Shown here: in pieces, positions 57,391 to 63,767 of the stretch
Layout: each line of letters starts with the position of its first letter
Position numbering within the stretch: the stretch's first letter is position 1
Source of the DNA: an uncultured Clostridia bacterium
Lineage (GTDB): Bacteria; Bacillota; Clostridia; Christensenellales; Borkfalkiaceae
DNA: 64,000 nucleotides
Assembly (NCBI GenBank): GCA_947630325.1
Contig: CANRHB010000001.1
Location: forward strand, 93,579 to 157,578
Direction: 5' to 3'
Position numbers and translations under genes: made by a program
The notes under the pieces: generated by a model
Database searches by the model: none
Seen by the model: only the letters and a program-made list of their open reading frames with translations
Told to the model about the DNA's origin: nothing

Positions 57391-58797
57391 TTACTTGTTC
57401 TTTTTGCCGATGAGCCGCCGCACAAAGTCGGGAAGCTGTTGGTCGTGGGAGACGCGTTCCACGGGCTCCTCGGGCTGAGGGGCGGGCTGTTGCGGTTGCT
57501 GGGGCGCAGGCTGTTGATAACCAGGCTGTGCGCCGTAATTCTGCTCATAGCCGTAAGGGGGCTGGGGAGCCGCAGGCTGCTGGGGCGCAGGTTGCTGATA
57601 GCCGTAAGGGTTATACGTTCCGCGGGGCGGGACGGCGGGCTGTGCAGGCTGGGTAGGCTGCTGGGGAGCCGCGGGGCGCACGGGTTGGGGTGCGGGAGCC
57701 GCAGGCTGGGCGGGTCTCTGTGCAGGTTGTCCTGCCTGAGGACGCTGATAGGTCTGCGTGCGGGTGTCGGGATGATTGCCCGCCGCGGGGAAGCCCGTTG
57801 CGATGACGGTGACCTCCACCTCGTCGCTGATATTCTCGTCGATGCACGCGCCGAAGATGATATTCGCGGAGTAGTCCACCACGCTGTGGATGAGCGAAGC
57901 CGCAAGTTTCACCTCGTCGAAGGTAAGGTCGTTGCCGCCGACGACGTTCAAAATGACGCCCGTCGCGCCCTCGATGGTCGTTTCGAGAAGCGGGCAGTTG
58001 ACCGCAAGGCGCACCGCCTCCACGATCCTGTTCTCTCCTTTCGCAACGCCCACGCCCATGTGCGCGAGACCCTTGTCCTTCAAGATCGTCTTGACGTCCG
58101 CAAAGTCGAGGTTGATGAGGGCGGGCGTGACGATGAGGTCGGCAATGCCGCGGATGCCCTGCTTCAACACTTCGTCGGCAACGCGGAGCGCCTCGCTCAT
58201 GGGAGCGTTCTTGGGCACAACGTCGCTGATCTTTTCGTTGGGAATGATGATGAGGGTATCGACGTACTTTTTGAGGTTGTCGAGCCCCTTCATCGTGTTG
58301 TCCATTCTGCGCTTTCCCTCAAAGGAGAAGGGCTCTGTGACAACGGCGACGGTAAGGATCTTCATATCCTTCGCCATCTTTGCGATGACGGGAGCCGCGC
58401 CCGTACCCGTTCCTCCGCCCATACCTGCGGTGATGAACAGAAGGTCGGTCTTTTCGATGGCACGGACGAGGTCGTCCTTATTTTCCTCGGCGGCGGCTCT
58501 GCCGATCTCGGGATCCGCGCCTGCGCCGAGGCCCTTGGTGAGGTGCGCGCCGATCTGGATCTTTCTCTCCGCCTTACTGCAAGCGAGGATCTGCGCGTCG
58601 GTGTTGACGGCAATATACTCCGCGCTCGTGATGCCGGCGTCGATCATGCGGTTGACGGCATTGTTGCCCGCGCCGCCCACGCCGATGACTTTAATGCGCG
58701 CTCTGCCCGTGTATTCGGGCTCGAGGGGCGCGGCAGGGGCGTAACTTTCTTGGGGCTGATTATCTTTTCCCACGAAAGGGATATTGTCGTTGTACAT
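57391..58797 (-). CDS. ftsZ: cell division protein FtsZ with long P/Q-rich linker
   Basis: GVGGAGNNAVNRM, GGGTGTGAAPVIA; C-terminal LPDFVRRL peptide. Confidence 0.95.
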   Translation of the reverse strand: MYNDNIPFVGKDNQPQESYAPAAPLEPEYTGRARIKVIGVGGAGNNAVNRMIDAGITSAEYIAVNTDAQILACSKAERKIQIGAHLTKGLGAGADPEIGRAAAEENKDDLVRAIEKTDLLFITAGMGGGTGTGAAPVIAKMAKDMKILTVAVVTEPFSFEGKRRMDNTMKGLDNLKKYVDTLIIIPNEKISDVVPKNAPMSEALRVADEVLKQGIRGIADLIVTPALINLDFADVKTILKDKGLAHMGVGVAKGENRIVEAVRLAVNCPLLETTIEGATGVILNVVGGNDLTFDEVKLAASLIHSVVDYSANIIFGACIDENISDEVEVTVIATGFPAAGNHPDTRTQTYQRPQAGQPAQRPAQPAAPAPQPVRPAAPQQPTQPAQPAVPPRGTYNPYGYQQPAPQQPAAPQPPYGYEQNYGAQPGYQQPAPQQPQQPAPQPEEPVERVSHDQQLPDFVRRLIGKKNK

Positions 58798-58800
58798 TGT

Positions 58801-59952
58801 TTAACCTCCGAATATGTTTAGAAATCTGAATAATTTTCCGTTCTTACTGTTGTCTTTATAGGCCATGTCCGTAAGCGCGATGCGCGAACTCATGGACGGC
58901 TTGTTGTAATAGGGCAGATCGGGCGCAAGCTGTTCGCAAACACAGCCGAGCCTGCGCGAAAGATGTTCGAGCGCGCCGCGGATGCCGTCGAGCCCCTCGC
59001 CCGTCACATAGAGCGGTTTGCTGTCGAGCTCCTTTCCCGAGCACTCTTCGAGGAAACCGCTAACCTTCTCGCAGAGATCGTCCAACCCCGCTTTGACCTC
59101 TTCCACAAAATCGTCTGCGGGGATGTCGTAAGTTTGTCCGCGGAAGTTGAATTCCCTGCTCTTCGCCTCCCGTTTCAAGTAGAGGTTGGAGCGGGTGAGC
59201 AGTTGCACCGCGCCTTCATAGGGAAGCCCGAATTTCTGCATGAGACGGACGGCGATCTGTCCCTGCCCCACCCAATAGGTCTTTTGGGCGAGAATGCCGC
59301 CGCCGAGAAGGAGGCACACCGTGGACGAGAGATACCCCACGTCGAGGAAGAGCGCATATTCGTCCCGCGTTTCGTCGGGGATGAGATAGCACGCCGTCGC
59401 AAGCTGGGTAGGCAGAAATTTGAGTTCGAGTTTCATGTCCGAAAAGATCTTTTCGAACGTGGAAGCAAAATATTCGGAGCAGTAGAAATAGGAGAGCACC
59501 CCCGAAAGCCCCGTGGAATAGAGCCCCGTGGGGTCGGCAACGCGGCGGTTGTCCGCCGTCGTGTAGATCATGCTCGCCACGCGGATATTGCGGTAGCCCT
59601 CCATTTCCCGTCTGCCGCTGTCGAAGAGGGTCTCCTTTTCGCGCGCGCCGATCTTGAGGCGTTTGGGGAAGCCCACGACCTGCTCTTTGGGAACGACGAG
59701 GGTAAATTCCCCGGGAACGCCGATATAGAGCGTGCGGAATCTTTGCCCGCAGATCTGTTCCACCGCGTCGAGCGCACCCGTCACGGCGGCGGCAAGTTCT
59801 TCGGTGTCATAAAACTCGCCGTCCTGATAGCCGCCGTAAGATTCGGTTTTGCTGGCCTTAAAGACAAAAGTGTTGTTCACTCCCCTTTCGCCTACAAAAA
59901 CCGCGATCTCCGAAGAACGGATGTCGAGGACAGCCACGCTCTTGTTCGCCAT
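58801..59952 (-). CDS. ftsA: FtsA-like cell division protein (divergent)
   Basis: Actin-fold N-terminus VAVLDIRSSEIAVFVGE, C-terminal amphipathic GKLFRFLNIFGG, position directly upstream of ftsZ. Confidence 0.75.
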   Translation of the reverse strand: MANKSVAVLDIRSSEIAVFVGERGVNNTFVFKASKTESYGGYQDGEFYDTEELAAAVTGALDAVEQICGQRFRTLYIGVPGEFTLVVPKEQVVGFPKRLKIGAREKETLFDSGRREMEGYRNIRVASMIYTTADNRRVADPTGLYSTGLSGVLSYFYCSEYFASTFEKIFSDMKLELKFLPTQLATACYLIPDETRDEYALFLDVGYLSSTVCLLLGGGILAQKTYWVGQGQIAVRLMQKFGLPYEGAVQLLTRSNLYLKREAKSREFNFRGQTYDIPADDFVEEVKAGLDDLCEKVSGFLEECSGKELDSKPLYVTGEGLDGIRGALEHLSRRLGCVCEQLAPDLPYYNKPSMSSRIALTDMAYKDNSKNGKLFRFLNIFGG

Positions 59953-59981: not shown

Positions 59982-60010
59982 ATTATATCAAAATGCCTTA
60001 TGCGTGTCAA
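59982..60010 (-). promoter_or_regulatory. ftsA-ftsZ promoter TTGACA-17-TATAAT with TG extension
   Basis: Minus-strand hexamers 60010-60005 and 59987-59982. Confidence 0.7.
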
Positions 60011-60086
60011 GGGAATATTCCCATTTTTTTGGCGCATGTTTGCACATTTTGCGCTTCTTGAACGTTCCTACCCCCATATAGGGCGC

Positions 60087-60119
60087 GAAAAAACCGCCGA
60101 AGATCTCGCCTCGGCGGTA
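60087..60119 (-). terminator. terminator after the methyltransferase-STAS gene
   Basis: ACCGCCGA-10nt-TCGGCGGT then TTTTTT on the minus strand. Confidence 0.75.
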
Positions 60120-60190
60120 AAACTGCGTCCTTATAAGAGCGTTTTGAAAAATCGGGGACCGATGATTTCCGGTCGGCGAAAAGGTAAGAT

Positions 60191-61396
60191 TTACGAGATC
60201 ATATCGGCAAAGCCCGTCTGTTCGAAGATCGCCGCGACCGTCTCGTTCTGTCCCTTAACGGAGAGATTGCCCTCCCCGACCTCCTTGATCATCAAAAGCA
60301 GAACGCGCAGTCCCGCGGAGGAGATATAGTCGAGCGCGGAAGCGTCAACGACGATCTTGGAAGGCTTCTCCCCGGCCGCCTTTTTGTAGACTTCCAGAAG
60401 TTCGGGCGCGGTGATCGAGTCGAGCCTGCCGCGCAACTTGATGTCCATTTTGCCGCCGTGCGTTTTCACCTTCACGCCGAAGGCGTCGCTGTCGTAATTT
60501 TCCTCCGTCTCCTTGTAGTTCTCGTCGGGGGTCATCACCCAGATGTGCACCTTCTCGAGCGACTTGATGAAATCGGCTTTCACTTGGTCGGAGTAGCCGT
60601 CGAGGCTGTGTACTCCCGTCGCGTATTCGGACATGGGCACGAGTTCCCACTTCAAGCCGACCGAGCGCAGGAAGTCCGTCACCGTTTTCATGGTGTTTTC
60701 GTAATCGAACGCAAGCACGGTCATGTTCTGCACTTCGATGTTCGTGTCCGACTGCTTTTCGTATGCCTTCATCGTCTTTTGAAGGTTTTCATACGCCGCC
60801 GTGCCGTGAACGGCCACCAACGCCGCCATAAAGAGCGGGTTCGCGTCGGGGTCGGTGGTGACCCACTGTCCGCCGAACTCCTTGAGCAGGCGGCGGATAT
60901 TCGTGCAGAGTTCGGTCAGTTCCGAATTGTTGAAATATGTAAGCAGTCCGTCGGATAAAACGGTGATTTCCCCTTTTACCGAATTGAGCGCCGCCCGAAG
61001 GGCATGATAATTCGTCGCGTCTGCGGCATGAAATTCCTTGTCCTTGATCCCGCGCTCGGCGAAAAGTTCGCCGAAAACAGGCCCGAGCTCGTCGGTGACG
61101 ATGGGCAGGTCGCAACCGACGTAATTCATCTCCTTGCACGGCTCATTGAGCGCGCGCGGAGTATATCCGCATCCAATGTCAACGACGGCGCTGTTTTTGT
61201 ATTTCCCTACAATGTTTTTGTATTTCCCTACAATGTTGTTGATTGTACGGAAACGGGTCTCCGTCATGAGCGTCAGTTCGGGGCTCAAAGCCACCTGCTG
61301 ATCTTTCGCTCCGAGAAACTCGTCGGCGTTTATGCCGAACTTTTTCGCTAAAATCGGCGCGTCCTCGTCTCCCGCGATACACAAATGCAGCAACAT
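60191..61396 (-). CDS. class I SAM-dependent methyltransferase fused to a STAS (SpoIIAA-like) domain
   Basis: VVDIGCGYTPRAL motif I; C-terminal ...DASALDYISSAGLRVLLLM... STAS with a Ser at the SpoIIAA phospho-site position; ATG 61396 has no SD (see poly-G finding). Confidence 0.75.
   Translation of the reverse strand: MLLHLCIAGDEDAPILAKKFGINADEFLGAKDQQVALSPELTLMTETRFRTINNIVGKYKNIVGKYKNSAVVDIGCGYTPRALNEPCKEMNYVGCDLPIVTDELGPVFGELFAERGIKDKEFHAADATNYHALRAALNSVKGEITVLSDGLLTYFNNSELTELCTNIRRLLKEFGGQWVTTDPDANPLFMAALVAVHGTAAYENLQKTMKAYEKQSDTNIEVQNMTVLAFDYENTMKTVTDFLRSVGLKWELVPMSEYATGVHSLDGYSDQVKADFIKSLEKVHIWVMTPDENYKETEENYDSDAFGVKVKTHGGKMDIKLRGRLDSITAPELLEVYKKAAGEKPSKIVVDASALDYISSAGLRVLLLMIKEVGEGNLSVKGQNETVAAIFEQTGFADMIS
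61193..61234. repeat. perfect 21-bp tandem duplication inside the CDS
   Basis: GTTTTTGTATTTCCCTACAAT x2; encodes the duplicated IVGKYKN heptapeptide. Confidence 0.95.
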
Positions 61397-61451
61397 TGAT
61401 TTTGCCGTATTAAAAATCGGATTTGTTTGTTCTCTTAAGTCTTGTTTTGTA

Positions 61452-61461
61452 CCCCCCCCCC
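61452..61461 (-). repeat. homopolymer G10 (ATG + G9) after a strong RBS
   Basis: Minus strand AAAGGAGGTCCCACGTCATGGGGGGGGGT; plus strand shows 10 consecutive C. Confidence 0.95.
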
Positions 61462-61495
61462 ATGACGTGGGACCTCCTTTTTATTTGATAATTTT

Positions 61496-61524
61496 AATAT
61501 AACAAGGAAGGGAAATTCTGTCAA
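61496..61524 (-). promoter_or_regulatory. promoter TTGACA-17-TATATT for the methyltransferase-STAS unit
   Basis: Minus-strand hexamers 61524-61519 and 61501-61496. Confidence 0.6.
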
Positions 61525-61554
61525 GGAAATGAGAAGGGTTTTCCGAAAAAAAAT

Positions 61555-61604
61555 AAAAAACCCAAAACCAAATGCCAAAAAGCGGTTCGTTTTGGGTTTT
61601 TTTG
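61555..61604 (-). terminator. terminator after divIB (bidirectional geometry)
   Basis: AACCCAAAAC-20nt-GTTTTGGGTT flanked by A and T runs. Confidence 0.7.
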
Positions 61605-61655: not shown

Positions 61656-62462
61656 TCAATTCTCAAAGGGAGGCTTGTCGCGGTGGTCGCTTACGGTAAA
61701 GCCGCCGTTCACCGAATCGACCACGTCGAAAAAGCCGTACAGCCGCTCGGCGTCGGGCAGTTCGCGGTACTTGAGGAGGACGGCCATCGCCTTGTCCTTG
61801 GTAAGGTGGGCGGGCGCATACACATCCACATACAGCCCCTCCCGGAAGAGGAGACGGAAGATATAATCTCCCTCGATGGCGTTCCCCGTGGGCACAAGGC
61901 GGAGAGAGGCGAGGTTTGCGCGGATGTCGTTGAGTTCGGAGGCAAACACGTTGCAGAACATGAGCGCCTCTTCGAAATATTTGCCCGTGACAGCCGTGCC
62001 CGCTTCCCCTTTCGTCAGCGCGAACCCCTCGAGAAGCACGTTCCCCCCCTTGCGGCGGTTGACGTTGTCCGTCTTTTCATAGAGGTAGAGCCCCGCTTCG
62101 TCGAGCACCGCATACCTGCCGTCCTCAAATTCATAGGTGTAGGTCTCCTTGCGCTCGGTGACGGAGAGGGTAAGGGTGCGCGGAAAGTCCTTTTGGAGCG
62201 CGTCCAAACGGAAGGCGGGATATTTTTCGACGATCCCCTGCACGTCCTCGAGGTCGAGGAAGGTGGTGCTGGAGCCGACGAACTCCTCTTCAAGTTCCGC
62301 TTGCAGGGCGTAGCTGTCCGCAAGCCCCTCTTCGGAGAGGGTGGAAAAGTTCACTTTTACGTCCGTCACGGTGAACACGGCGTTGAGCGCCGCGGCGATC
62401 ACCGCAACGAGCAGAACAAGTCCGATCGCCGTCGTCAAAAGTATCTTTCCTCGTTTTTGCAT
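61656..62462 (-). CDS. divIB: cell division protein DivIB/FtsQ
   Basis: Single N-terminal TM then POTRA-like region; position between murA and ftsA. Confidence 0.8.
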   Translation of the reverse strand: MQKRGKILLTTAIGLVLLVAVIAAALNAVFTVTDVKVNFSTLSEEGLADSYALQAELEEEFVGSSTTFLDLEDVQGIVEKYPAFRLDALQKDFPRTLTLSVTERKETYTYEFEDGRYAVLDEAGLYLYEKTDNVNRRKGGNVLLEGFALTKGEAGTAVTGKYFEEALMFCNVFASELNDIRANLASLRLVPTGNAIEGDYIFRLLFREGLYVDVYAPAHLTKDKAMAVLLKYRELPDAERLYGFFDVVDSVNGGFTVSDHRDKPPFEN

Positions 62463-62510: not shown

Positions 62511-63767
62511 CTACATTCTGATGCGCTTGATCTTTGCGCCGAGCCCCGTCAATTTTTCCTGTAACGCCGCATAGCCGCGGTCGATGTGCGAGAGGTCGAG
62601 CACTTCGCTCCCGCCCTCCGCGCCGAGGGCCGCCAAAACGAGAGCCGCGCCCCCGCGCAGATCCCCCGCGGTCAGGGACGCCCCGTGGAGCCGCCTTACT
62701 CCCCGCACAAAGGCGAGCCTCCCCTTCACTTCGATGTCCGCCCCCATCTTCTTGAGCTCGGGCACATATTTATAGCGGGTCTCGAAGAGGTTCTCCTCGA
62801 TGACCGCTCCCCCCTCCGCGCCGCTGTTGAGGGCGGTGGCCTGCGCCTGCAGGTCGGTGGGAAAGCCGGGGAAGGGCATCGTCTCGATACGGCGGTTGCA
62901 TTTGAGCCTGCCGTTGCTCTCTATCCTTATTTTATCATTTTTCGCATGGATTTTGCAACCGTTTTCACGCAATTTATGTAAAAGCAAACGAATATTCTCG
63001 GGCGCGACCCCCGTCACCTCGATCTCCCCGCCGCAGATGGCGCACGCCATGAGGTAGGTGCCCGCCTCGATACGGTCTTTTATGGGGCGGAAGGTGACCC
63101 CGCCGAGGGACTTTACCCCCTCGATCTCGACGGTATCCGTGCCCGCGCCCCGCACCTTTGCCCCCATCGCGTTGAGGAAATTTTGCAGATCGACGATCTC
63201 GGGCTCCTTCGCGGCCCCCTGCACCACCGTTCTTCCTTCCGCCTTGACGGCGGCAAGCAGAATGTTCTCCGTCGCGCCGACGCTGGGAAAGTCGAGGGCG
63301 ATCTCCGCGCCGCGCAAACTATCGCACTTGCAGAAGATGAACCCCTCCCGCTCCTCGATCTTCACCCCGAGCCGTTTGAGCGCGGAAAGGTGCAGGTCGA
63401 TGGGACGGAGCCCGATGTCGCACCCGCCGGGATAGGCGATGACGGCGCGGCCGAAGCGGGTAAGGAGAGACCCGAGCATGAACACCGACGAGCGGAGTTC
63501 CTTGGTCAGCGCGGAGGAGAGTTCGTGGGAGCAGGCGTTGGAGCTGTCTATCACAACGTCGTCGCCGCGGAACTCCGCCCTTGCTCCGAGTTCGCGCAAA
63601 ATTTGCATCATGCAGAGGGCGTCCGTGATGGGCGGCACCTCCTCGATCGTCACTTGTTTCTCGGTTAAAACAGACGCGGCGAGGAGGGGCAGCACGGAAT
63701 TTTTCGCCGACTGCGCCTTTACCGTGCCGCTGAGGGTCCTCCCCCCGTCTATTAAAAATTTATCCAT
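62511..63767 (-). CDS. murA: UDP-N-acetylglucosamine 1-carboxyvinyltransferase
   Basis: 418 aa; MDKFLIDGGRTLSGTVKAQSAKNSVLPLLAA; active-site loop GGCDIGLRPID. Confidence 0.95.
   Translation of the reverse strand: MDKFLIDGGRTLSGTVKAQSAKNSVLPLLAASVLTEKQVTIEEVPPITDALCMMQILRELGARAEFRGDDVVIDSSNACSHELSSALTKELRSSVFMLGSLLTRFGRAVIAYPGGCDIGLRPIDLHLSALKRLGVKIEEREGFIFCKCDSLRGAEIALDFPSVGATENILLAAVKAEGRTVVQGAAKEPEIVDLQNFLNAMGAKVRGAGTDTVEIEGVKSLGGVTFRPIKDRIEAGTYLMACAICGGEIEVTGVAPENIRLLLHKLRENGCKIHAKNDKIRIESNGRLKCNRRIETMPFPGFPTDLQAQATALNSGAEGGAVIEENLFETRYKYVPELKKMGADIEVKGRLAFVRGVRRLHGASLTAGDLRGGAALVLAALGAEGGSEVLDLSHIDRGYAALQEKLTGLGAKIKRIRM

Follow-up and report, generated by a model that had tools for sequence, protein, structure and literature searches.

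Phase variation by simple-sequence repeats is known mostly from a small number of pathogens, namely Campylobacter, Neisseria, Haemophilus, Helicobacter, Bordetella and mycobacteria. The switches known from gut commensals are for the most part DNA inversions, and the papers matched by our literature search on phase variation in the gut microbiome concern invertons. In Campylobacter, 95% of the intragenic tracts are G on the coding strand, the commonest lengths are 9G and 10G, and PhasomeIt uses G/C runs of at least 7 as a working cut-off (PMC6321876). Homopolymers at the 5′ ends of genes have been proposed as general devices for reversible inactivation, with the poly(A) tract of Listeria inlA as an example (PMC2831843). 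Homopolymer switches are also reported for intracellular regulators and enzymes (PMC1891110, 10.1101/717272, 10.1101/2025.09.12.675794).

We analyzed a gene on the minus strand of a 64-kb stretch of a rabbit-gut Clostridia genome; this whole stretch is called the window below. The gene encodes a methyltransferase-like (MTase-like) domain fused to a STAS domain. Like the poly-G/C contingency loci of Campylobacter jejuni, Neisseria and Helicobacter, it carries an intragenic G8–10 tract on the coding strand near the 5′ end. In addition, a length change of one base shifts the frame and truncates the product, and the lengths vary in otherwise identical genomes. In contrast to these loci, the host is an uncultured Gram-positive member of the rabbit-gut Clostridia, and the gene encodes a cytoplasmic regulatory/enzymatic protein instead of a surface structure or a restriction-modification enzyme. 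Furthermore, one tract was found in 64 kb and none in 586 kb of relatives, which gives no evidence of a phasome.

With inlA of Listeria monocytogenes (Orsi et al. 2010, PMC2831843), the locus shares a Firmicute host, a homopolymer at the extreme 5′ end and a very short out-of-frame peptide. In both cases, frameshifted and in-frame alleles coexist in nature, and the inlA case was read as reversible inactivation (PMC2831843). However, the inlA tract is poly(A), it affects a virulence factor of the cell surface, and experiments have determined how often it switches (PMC2831843). The locus also resembles the phasevarions (Mod / type I–III) in having a simple-sequence repeat in the 5′ part of a methyltransferase-annotated gene. 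It differs from them in its predicted leucine-carboxyl-methyltransferase (LCM) fold, which is that of PPM1, LCMT-1, TYW4 and ML2640c, and in having no adjoining restriction partner; an epigenetic regulon is not expected. The poly-C tract of Bordetella bvgS, M. tuberculosis glpK and the poly-G tract of Klebsiella rmpA are reported to be alike in that a frameshift toggles an intracellular regulator or enzyme, whereas the protein family of our locus, MTase-like plus STAS, is a different one. The mechanism itself is textbook knowledge; the novelty lies in the host lineage, the de novo gain of the tract and the intracellular MTase-like/anti-anti-sigma target.

The gene start on the minus strand

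The features of the locus are as follows.

61555–61602, minus strand: intrinsic terminator of the upstream 268-aa gene, with a U-run to about 61545
61496–61524, minus strand: sigma-70-type promoter; TTGACA, 17 nt, TATATT, with a TG-extended −10; 11 of 12 consensus matches
61473–61480, minus strand: Shine-Dalgarno (SD) sequence AAAGGAGG, 9 nt 5′ of the ATG, read from the sequence
61461–61463, minus strand: start codon ATG of the MTase-like/STAS gene, placed by the homolog starts and the 423-aa product P0121 on contig L089
61452–61460, minus strand: poly-G tract on the coding strand, G9 here; Gly2–Gly4 when in frame
61410–61463, minus strand: 17-codon dead-end frame MGGGYKTRLKRTNKSDF-stop, the translation of the G9 allele
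61397–61450, minus strand: stranded coding segment TKQDLREQTNPIFNTAKS in the frame of the main ORF, with the family's conserved N-terminal motif
60191–61396, minus strand: remaining ORF, 401 aa as called; LCM-like domain at about 61285–60503, STAS domain at 60472–60197
61192–61241, minus strand: 21-bp tandem duplication, in frame (NIVGKYK twice); TRF period 21, 2.4 copies, 96% matches
60087–60118, minus strand: intrinsic terminator 3′ of the tract gene; 10-bp stem with 7 GC pairs and a T-run, found by scanner and fold

The promoter consists of TTGACA at 61524–61519, a 17-nt gap and TGnTATATT at 61501–61496 on the minus strand, and it is identical across all five assemblies that span the tract. 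The 9-nt spacer between AAAGGAGG and ATG 61463 reads TCCCACGTC. The relatives L005, L009, L013 and L020 have the same AAAGGAGG ahead of the start, with a spacing of 7–9 nt. On the minus strand, G9 is followed by T and then by ACAAAACAAGAC (T ACA AAA CAA GAC...). Tract length is counted here as the number of G residues after the ATG; the C10 run on the plus strand (61452–61461) includes the G of the ATG.

Translation from ATG 61463 in the G9 form ends after 17 codons, and the stop lies 13 nt ahead of ATG 61396, at which the long ORF begins. ATG 61396 has no SD, and the sequence upstream of it is AATACGGCAAAATCAATG. In the computed translations, the G8 version gives MGGGTKQDLREQTNPIFNTAKSMLLHLC... 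with 423 aa and the G11 version gives 424 aa, while the G10 version gives MGGGVQNKT-stop, i.e. 9 codons. The layout described in the initial annotation (SD, ATG 61463, G9 and the 17-codon peptide) was reproduced when sequence and translation were re-derived. Its statements that the long ORF starts at an ATG without SD, and that one G less or two more would join the frames, agree with the upstream sequence and with the translations of 423 and 424 aa.

The homologs were then used to compare the two start codons. A search with the repaired protein gave more than 300 homologs, ranging from Clostridia to Methanobrevibacter. The full-length ones have 411–420 aa and cover 98–99% of the query. The sole exact match in this search was P0001, the 401-aa call from this genome. 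In the family alignment A1 (34 sequences, down to 30% identity, one Methanobrevibacter protein among them), all full-length members encode the 22-residue segment 5′ of 61396, with the motif TNPxFNTAK. Each of N14, P15, N18 and A20 is found in at least 90% of the 34 members. The closest homologs begin with M-x-E-KQDLREQTNPIFNTAKSMLL, and the homolog starts lie 2–3 codons ahead of the conserved KQDLREQTNP segment. The DNA sequence AAACAAGACTTAAGAGAACAAACAAATCC within the stranded segment is common to L009 and L013. In place of Met23, which corresponds to ATG 61396, most relatives in A1 have Val, Thr or Ala. When the main frame of the G9 allele was scanned from the TAA just 5′ of AAAGGAGG to 61396, no ATG, GTG or TTG was found.

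Since the homologs conserve the 22-residue segment upstream of 61396, ATG 61463 is established as the true start, and the gene as frameshifted in the window sequence. This accords with the earlier proposal that the well-placed ATG is the real one, as the G8 form gives back 22 residues with the family's N-terminal motif. ATG 61396 was rejected as the authentic start, given its lack of SD, the unconserved Met23 and the conserved motif upstream of it. By the same comparison, the 401-aa model is evidently an annotation artefact with a wrong 5′ end. The locus would be better annotated as a frameshifted or phase-variable 423-aa gene from 61463, replacing the deposited 401-aa model.

Tract length in assemblies and relatives

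By exact-protein look-ups, all contigs of the ENA/Logan/NCBI collection that encode the 401-aa product were recovered. The allele lengths are the consensus of metaSPAdes/Logan contigs with about 3.4–3.8x Illumina coverage, apparently from one project; a literature search for the rabbit MAG data set found nothing specific. The alleles are as follows.

Window: G9, OFF; reference
L003 (ERZ27249088): G9, OFF; identical to the window over 4571 nt
L001 (ERZ27249309): G10, OFF; identical to the window over 4947 nt apart from one additional G
L002 (ERZ27249097): G10, OFF; identical to the window over 4678 nt apart from one additional G
L089 (ERZ27249317): G8, ON; identical to the window over about 3.3 kb apart from one G less
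L004 (Logan, ERR10663745): tract unspanned; the contig starts 6 nt beyond the tract

Thus, the five spanning assemblies, which come from different samples, have tracts of 8, 9, 9, 10 and 10, with no other differences over 3.3–4.9 kb. In about 17 kb of pairwise comparison, no site varies other than the tract, which has three states, one of them in frame. The control runs, namely a C7 at 62043–62049, about 600 bp away, an intergenic A8 at 61546–61553 and an intergenic T7, do not vary in any assembly. The exact 423-aa G8 product is present in the collection as P0121, encoded on L089; in this way, the in-frame version that the initial annotation had foreseen was found in another assembly. These results document a tract-length polymorphism, including an in-frame allele, at the assembly level.

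Other look-ups gave no further alleles. Two 29-nt probes, one from the upstream flank and one from the conserved downstream segment, matched no JGI metagenome contig. The look-up via the upstream neighbour protein returned the known contigs and two Logan contigs that end before the intergenic region. No exact match to the G5, G11 or G14 products was present in the collection.

Apart from the tract, L089 shows 23 mismatches to the window, all in contig nt 56–323 (about window 63000–63270, in the murA-like gene at 62511–63767). This cluster occupies 270 nt at the contig end, and 20 of the 23 mismatches are synonymous; the remaining 3.3 kb are identical. Recombination with a diverged strain could have produced this cluster, or the contig end could be chimeric.

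Apart from the C10 run on the plus strand, no G or C run in the window exceeds 7. Extrapolation from the window's own run-length decay gives an expectation of about 0.09 G/C runs of at least 10 per 64 kb. Across 80 loci of related genomes, 586 kb in total, the G/C runs go up to 8 and none reaches 9. A Markov-chain simulation gave P = 0.16–0.40 for a run of at least 10. Such simulations overpredict long runs, because the tract itself raises their estimate and because they take no account of the fact that the genome avoids long runs; therefore, the simulation was set aside, and the empirical decay and the related-genome control were used. The tract is not a chance product of composition.

In thirteen related species, no homopolymer was found at the gene start. 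These are rabbit-gut MAGs labelled Monoglobus, Clostridia, Oscillospiraceae and Ruminiclostridium, with a few from other hosts. The start of L009 reads AAAGGAGG-N8-ATG GAA GAA AAA CAA GAC, that of L013 reads GTG GGT GAA AAA CAA GAC, and that of P0002 (83% identical) reads ATG AGT GAA AAA CAA. A comparison of the tract in related genomes had been named earlier as a check: the tract is absent from the 13 species. It is therefore derived, a recent gain specific to this lineage, and it arose de novo where a frameshift would be most effective and least wasteful.

The gene is disrupted independently, by unrelated lesions, in at least five related genomes (rabbit-gut MAGs), as listed below.

L020 1671–2267 and L035 4001–4214: internal deletions of the MTase-like/STAS gene
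L095 1468–2556: first 54 residues of the MTase-like/STAS protein lost
L096/L097 921–2352: insertion of about 200 nt and a frameshift in the MTase-like/STAS gene
L098 1319–2556: frameshift beside a G5 run in the MTase-like/STAS gene

In this group, the MTase-like/STAS family looks dispensable or often inactivated. MAG assembly errors could account for some of these lesions.

A probable translational switch and its alternatives

We consider it probable that the G tract is a hypermutable translational on/off switch and that the window carries it in the OFF state. Slipped-strand mispairing at replication would add or remove single G residues at codons 2–4. With G8 (or G11), ribosomes loaded at the strong SD and ATG 61463 would make the full 423-aa (424-aa) protein. 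With G9 or G10, translation from ATG 61463 would halt after 17 or 9 codons, and the conserved N-terminal segment would not be made. In the OFF state, reinitiation at the SD-less ATG 61396 could give at most a trace of the truncated 401-aa product, which would lack the conserved motif. As at contingency loci, the G/C run is of slippage length (8–10, where efficient slippage takes at least 7–8), it lies within the reading frame, and its length varies between samples with identical flanks, ON and OFF alleles both being present in the consensus at about 3.5x. Except for the tract, no damage is seen in the promoter, the SD, the ORF or the terminators. The variation in tract length is presumably biological rather than technical. 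The switching would be expected to be reversible at high frequency, and it may be useful to the organism. If this reading is true, natural ON and OFF poly-G alleles exist in uncultured rabbit-gut Clostridia and can be detected straight from metagenome assemblies, and a widespread MTase-like/STAS family is marked as conditionally costly.

Some findings count against a switch. Only one of the five alleles is ON, as neutral drift would give, and no second tract-bearing gene occurs in the 64 kb, so that there is no sign of a genome-wide contingency-locus strategy. The tract might instead be a real mutational hot spot that is not maintained; slippage would then have knocked out a dispensable gene, and G8 would be the form that is not yet broken. 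The independently broken copies of the relatives (L020, L035, L095, L096/L097 and L098), the OFF state of four of the five alleles, the additional 21-bp duplication within the gene, and a genomic context that varies among relatives, as expected for an accessory gene, all agree with such decay. However, outside the tract, all assemblies agree exactly in the 1.27-kb gene and in its promoter, SD and terminators, and all of these elements are intact. Moreover, two OFF lengths and an ON length on one background indicate repeated recent changes, not one old lesion, and the long G run arose de novo at the position at which a switch is most effective. On balance, we judge neutral decay to be unlikely, though it deserves serious consideration. 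A purely technical origin, in which the true tract is G8 everywhere and G9 and G10 result from mis-sizing by Illumina sequencing, library PCR or low-coverage assembly, seems very unlikely to us. Illumina and library PCR are able to mis-size homopolymers (PMC8808543), the contig coverage is 3.4–3.8x, and one contig (L004) breaks at the tract. Nevertheless, this would require errors of two kinds at a single site in at least three of the five independent consensus sequences, with no indel at all in about 17 kb of flanking sequence or in the C7, A8 and T7 runs. It is especially in tracts of more than 14 bp that Illumina data show spurious homopolymer indels (PMC8808543). For the window itself, the coverage is probably higher than for the short contigs, since its source contig is up to 388 kb long. 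The initial annotation had left a phase-variable switch and a homopolymer error side by side. The lengths of 8, 9, 9, 10 and 10 together with the stable shorter runs favour the switch, and an error is unlikely at the level of a consensus of about 3.5x.

We also considered whether full-length protein is made from G9 or G10 by recoding, that is, by ribosomal frameshifting or by slippage of RNA polymerase on the G run. On consecutive GGG codons, tRNA-Gly is able to re-pair in any frame, and the strong promoter and SD have been kept, both of which would suit recoding. Against it, slippage during transcription is known chiefly from A/T runs. The start region yielded no stimulatory RNA structure, the folds of G8, G9 and G10 having z = +0.6 to +1.0 versus shuffles, and no relative has a tract or a frameshift at the start. 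Since an in-frame allele exists, recoding is also unneeded, and we regard it as most improbable. A tract-length-dependent mRNA structure at the start was rejected as well, as these folds are no better than those of the shuffles.

The encoded protein and its gene surroundings

A STAS domain of the type found in anti-sigma-factor antagonists makes up the C-terminal 95 residues. It was detected by Pfam PF01740 (E = 4.7e-13, 49.3 bits vs a cut-off of 22.6) and by NCBIfam TIGR00377 (57.0 bits vs a cut-off of 53.45). The PDB matches of the domain are SpoIIAA and RsbV chains, with E = 1e-9 to 1e-11. The invariant Ser382 is aligned with the phospho-acceptor Ser58 of B. subtilis SpoIIAA (1auz alignment; SpoIIAA numbering by our own count). 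Thus, a score above the curated cut-off and a conserved serine identify an anti-sigma-factor antagonist. In these two respects the domain is like SpoIIAA and RsbV; unlike them, it is fused to a 320-residue methyltransferase-like N-terminal domain.

The N-terminal 320 residues give a marginal methyltransferase signal by sequence (Methyltransf_25, E = 0.03). The window protein has no match to Pfam LCM (PF04072) at E <= 0.01, and six of the 34 family members do have one, with a best E of 1.2e-05. In the Foldseek search with the AlphaFold model (pLDDT 84.9), PPM1/LCMT-1 came first (E 5e-10, probability 1.00, TM about 0.5–0.6 per target), followed by TYW4 and then by the mycobacterial LCM-like proteins ML2640c and Rv0731c. 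The residues invariant in A1 are D95/C98/G99/R103, D118-L-P and D148/T150, which we take to be the sites of motif I, the end of strand β2 and the post-β4 motif of LCM enzymes. The model therefore predicts a leucine-carboxyl-methyltransferase-like class I fold for the N-terminal domain, which makes it a putative enzyme.

The window protein matched none of the DNA-methyltransferase families in Pfam or NCBIfam. A DNA methyltransferase, and with it a phasevarion, was rejected on the basis of these family searches and the LCM-type fold. The analogy to phase-variable DNA methyltransferases drawn in the initial annotation thus did not survive, the predicted fold being of the PPM1/LCMT-1/ML2640c type and fused to a SpoIIAA-type STAS domain. 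Since the fold is not that of a DNA methyltransferase, a methylome comparison of tract variants would be uninformative. A role as a defence-system component was also dismissed, as PADLOC returned no defence-system match for the gene. Our full-text literature search for the MTase-like/STAS fusion found no paper on this family (more than 300 members), which appears to be uncharacterised.

The poly-G tract might stochastically switch an anti-anti-sigma regulator fused to a protein or small-molecule methyltransferase and so create heritable, reversible subpopulations in a sigma-controlled programme. We think this quite doubtful. If it is true, the subpopulations would differ in a programme such as stress response, sporulation or division, and simple-sequence-repeat phase variation would extend from the surface antigens of pathogens to intracellular signalling in commensal Firmicutes. 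Neither an anti-sigma kinase nor a sigma factor adjoins the tract gene in the window, and no restriction partner adjoins it there. One relative, L098 (GCA_947630525.1), has an ECF-type sigma-70 gene (Sigma70_r2/r4) at 1–290. This gene is encoded on the other strand, some 1.2 kb upstream of the MTase-like/STAS gene, and it possibly hints at a sigma-factor pathway served by the STAS domain.

The 21-bp duplication lies in the loop before strand β1 and motif I, and residues 85–87 have low pLDDT. It is an insertion relative to all 33 aligned homologs and is present in all five assemblies. No exact match to duplication-free versions of the protein was found in the collection. It is a second slippage-prone repeat within the same gene as the poly-G tract.

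The tract gene is located in the cell-division cluster, between the 268-aa gene at the FtsQ/DivIB position (61656–62462) and the gene at the ftsA position (58801–59952), which is followed by ftsZ (57391–58797). Its neighbours are a 268-aa membrane protein, the FtsA-position gene, FtsZ and MurA. The 268-aa and the 383-aa neighbour proteins have no Pfam match. The fold of the upstream terminator has −21.7 kcal/mol with z = −3.5, and none of 200 shuffles is as stable; the consensus scanner missed it because of its long loop. This terminator isolates the tract gene from transcription of the 268-aa gene. With its own promoter and flanking terminators, the MTase-like/STAS gene is therefore a monocistronic, self-contained unit.

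In the relatives, the gene lies amid unrelated neighbours, e.g. beside a resolvase in L005. Since the neighbours differ between relatives, it is an accessory gene. The gene body has 52–57% GC, as do the surroundings, and only the 5′ end and the intergenic region are AT-rich. A foreign composition was excluded, as the GC of the gene body is like that of the surroundings.

Antisense to the 3′ end of the gene, a 109-aa ORF (60000–60329, plus strand) overlaps the terminator region and has no Pfam match. It is called as a gene in public assemblies and is probably a spurious call. The C-terminal part of FtsZ (468 aa) at 57391–57800 contains a long Pro/Gln/Ala-rich low-complexity linker (…QPAQPAAPAPQPVRPAAPQQPTQPAQPAVPP…). 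The region of this linker forms a local GC peak of 0.65–0.68 and carries several long spurious ORFs on both strands.
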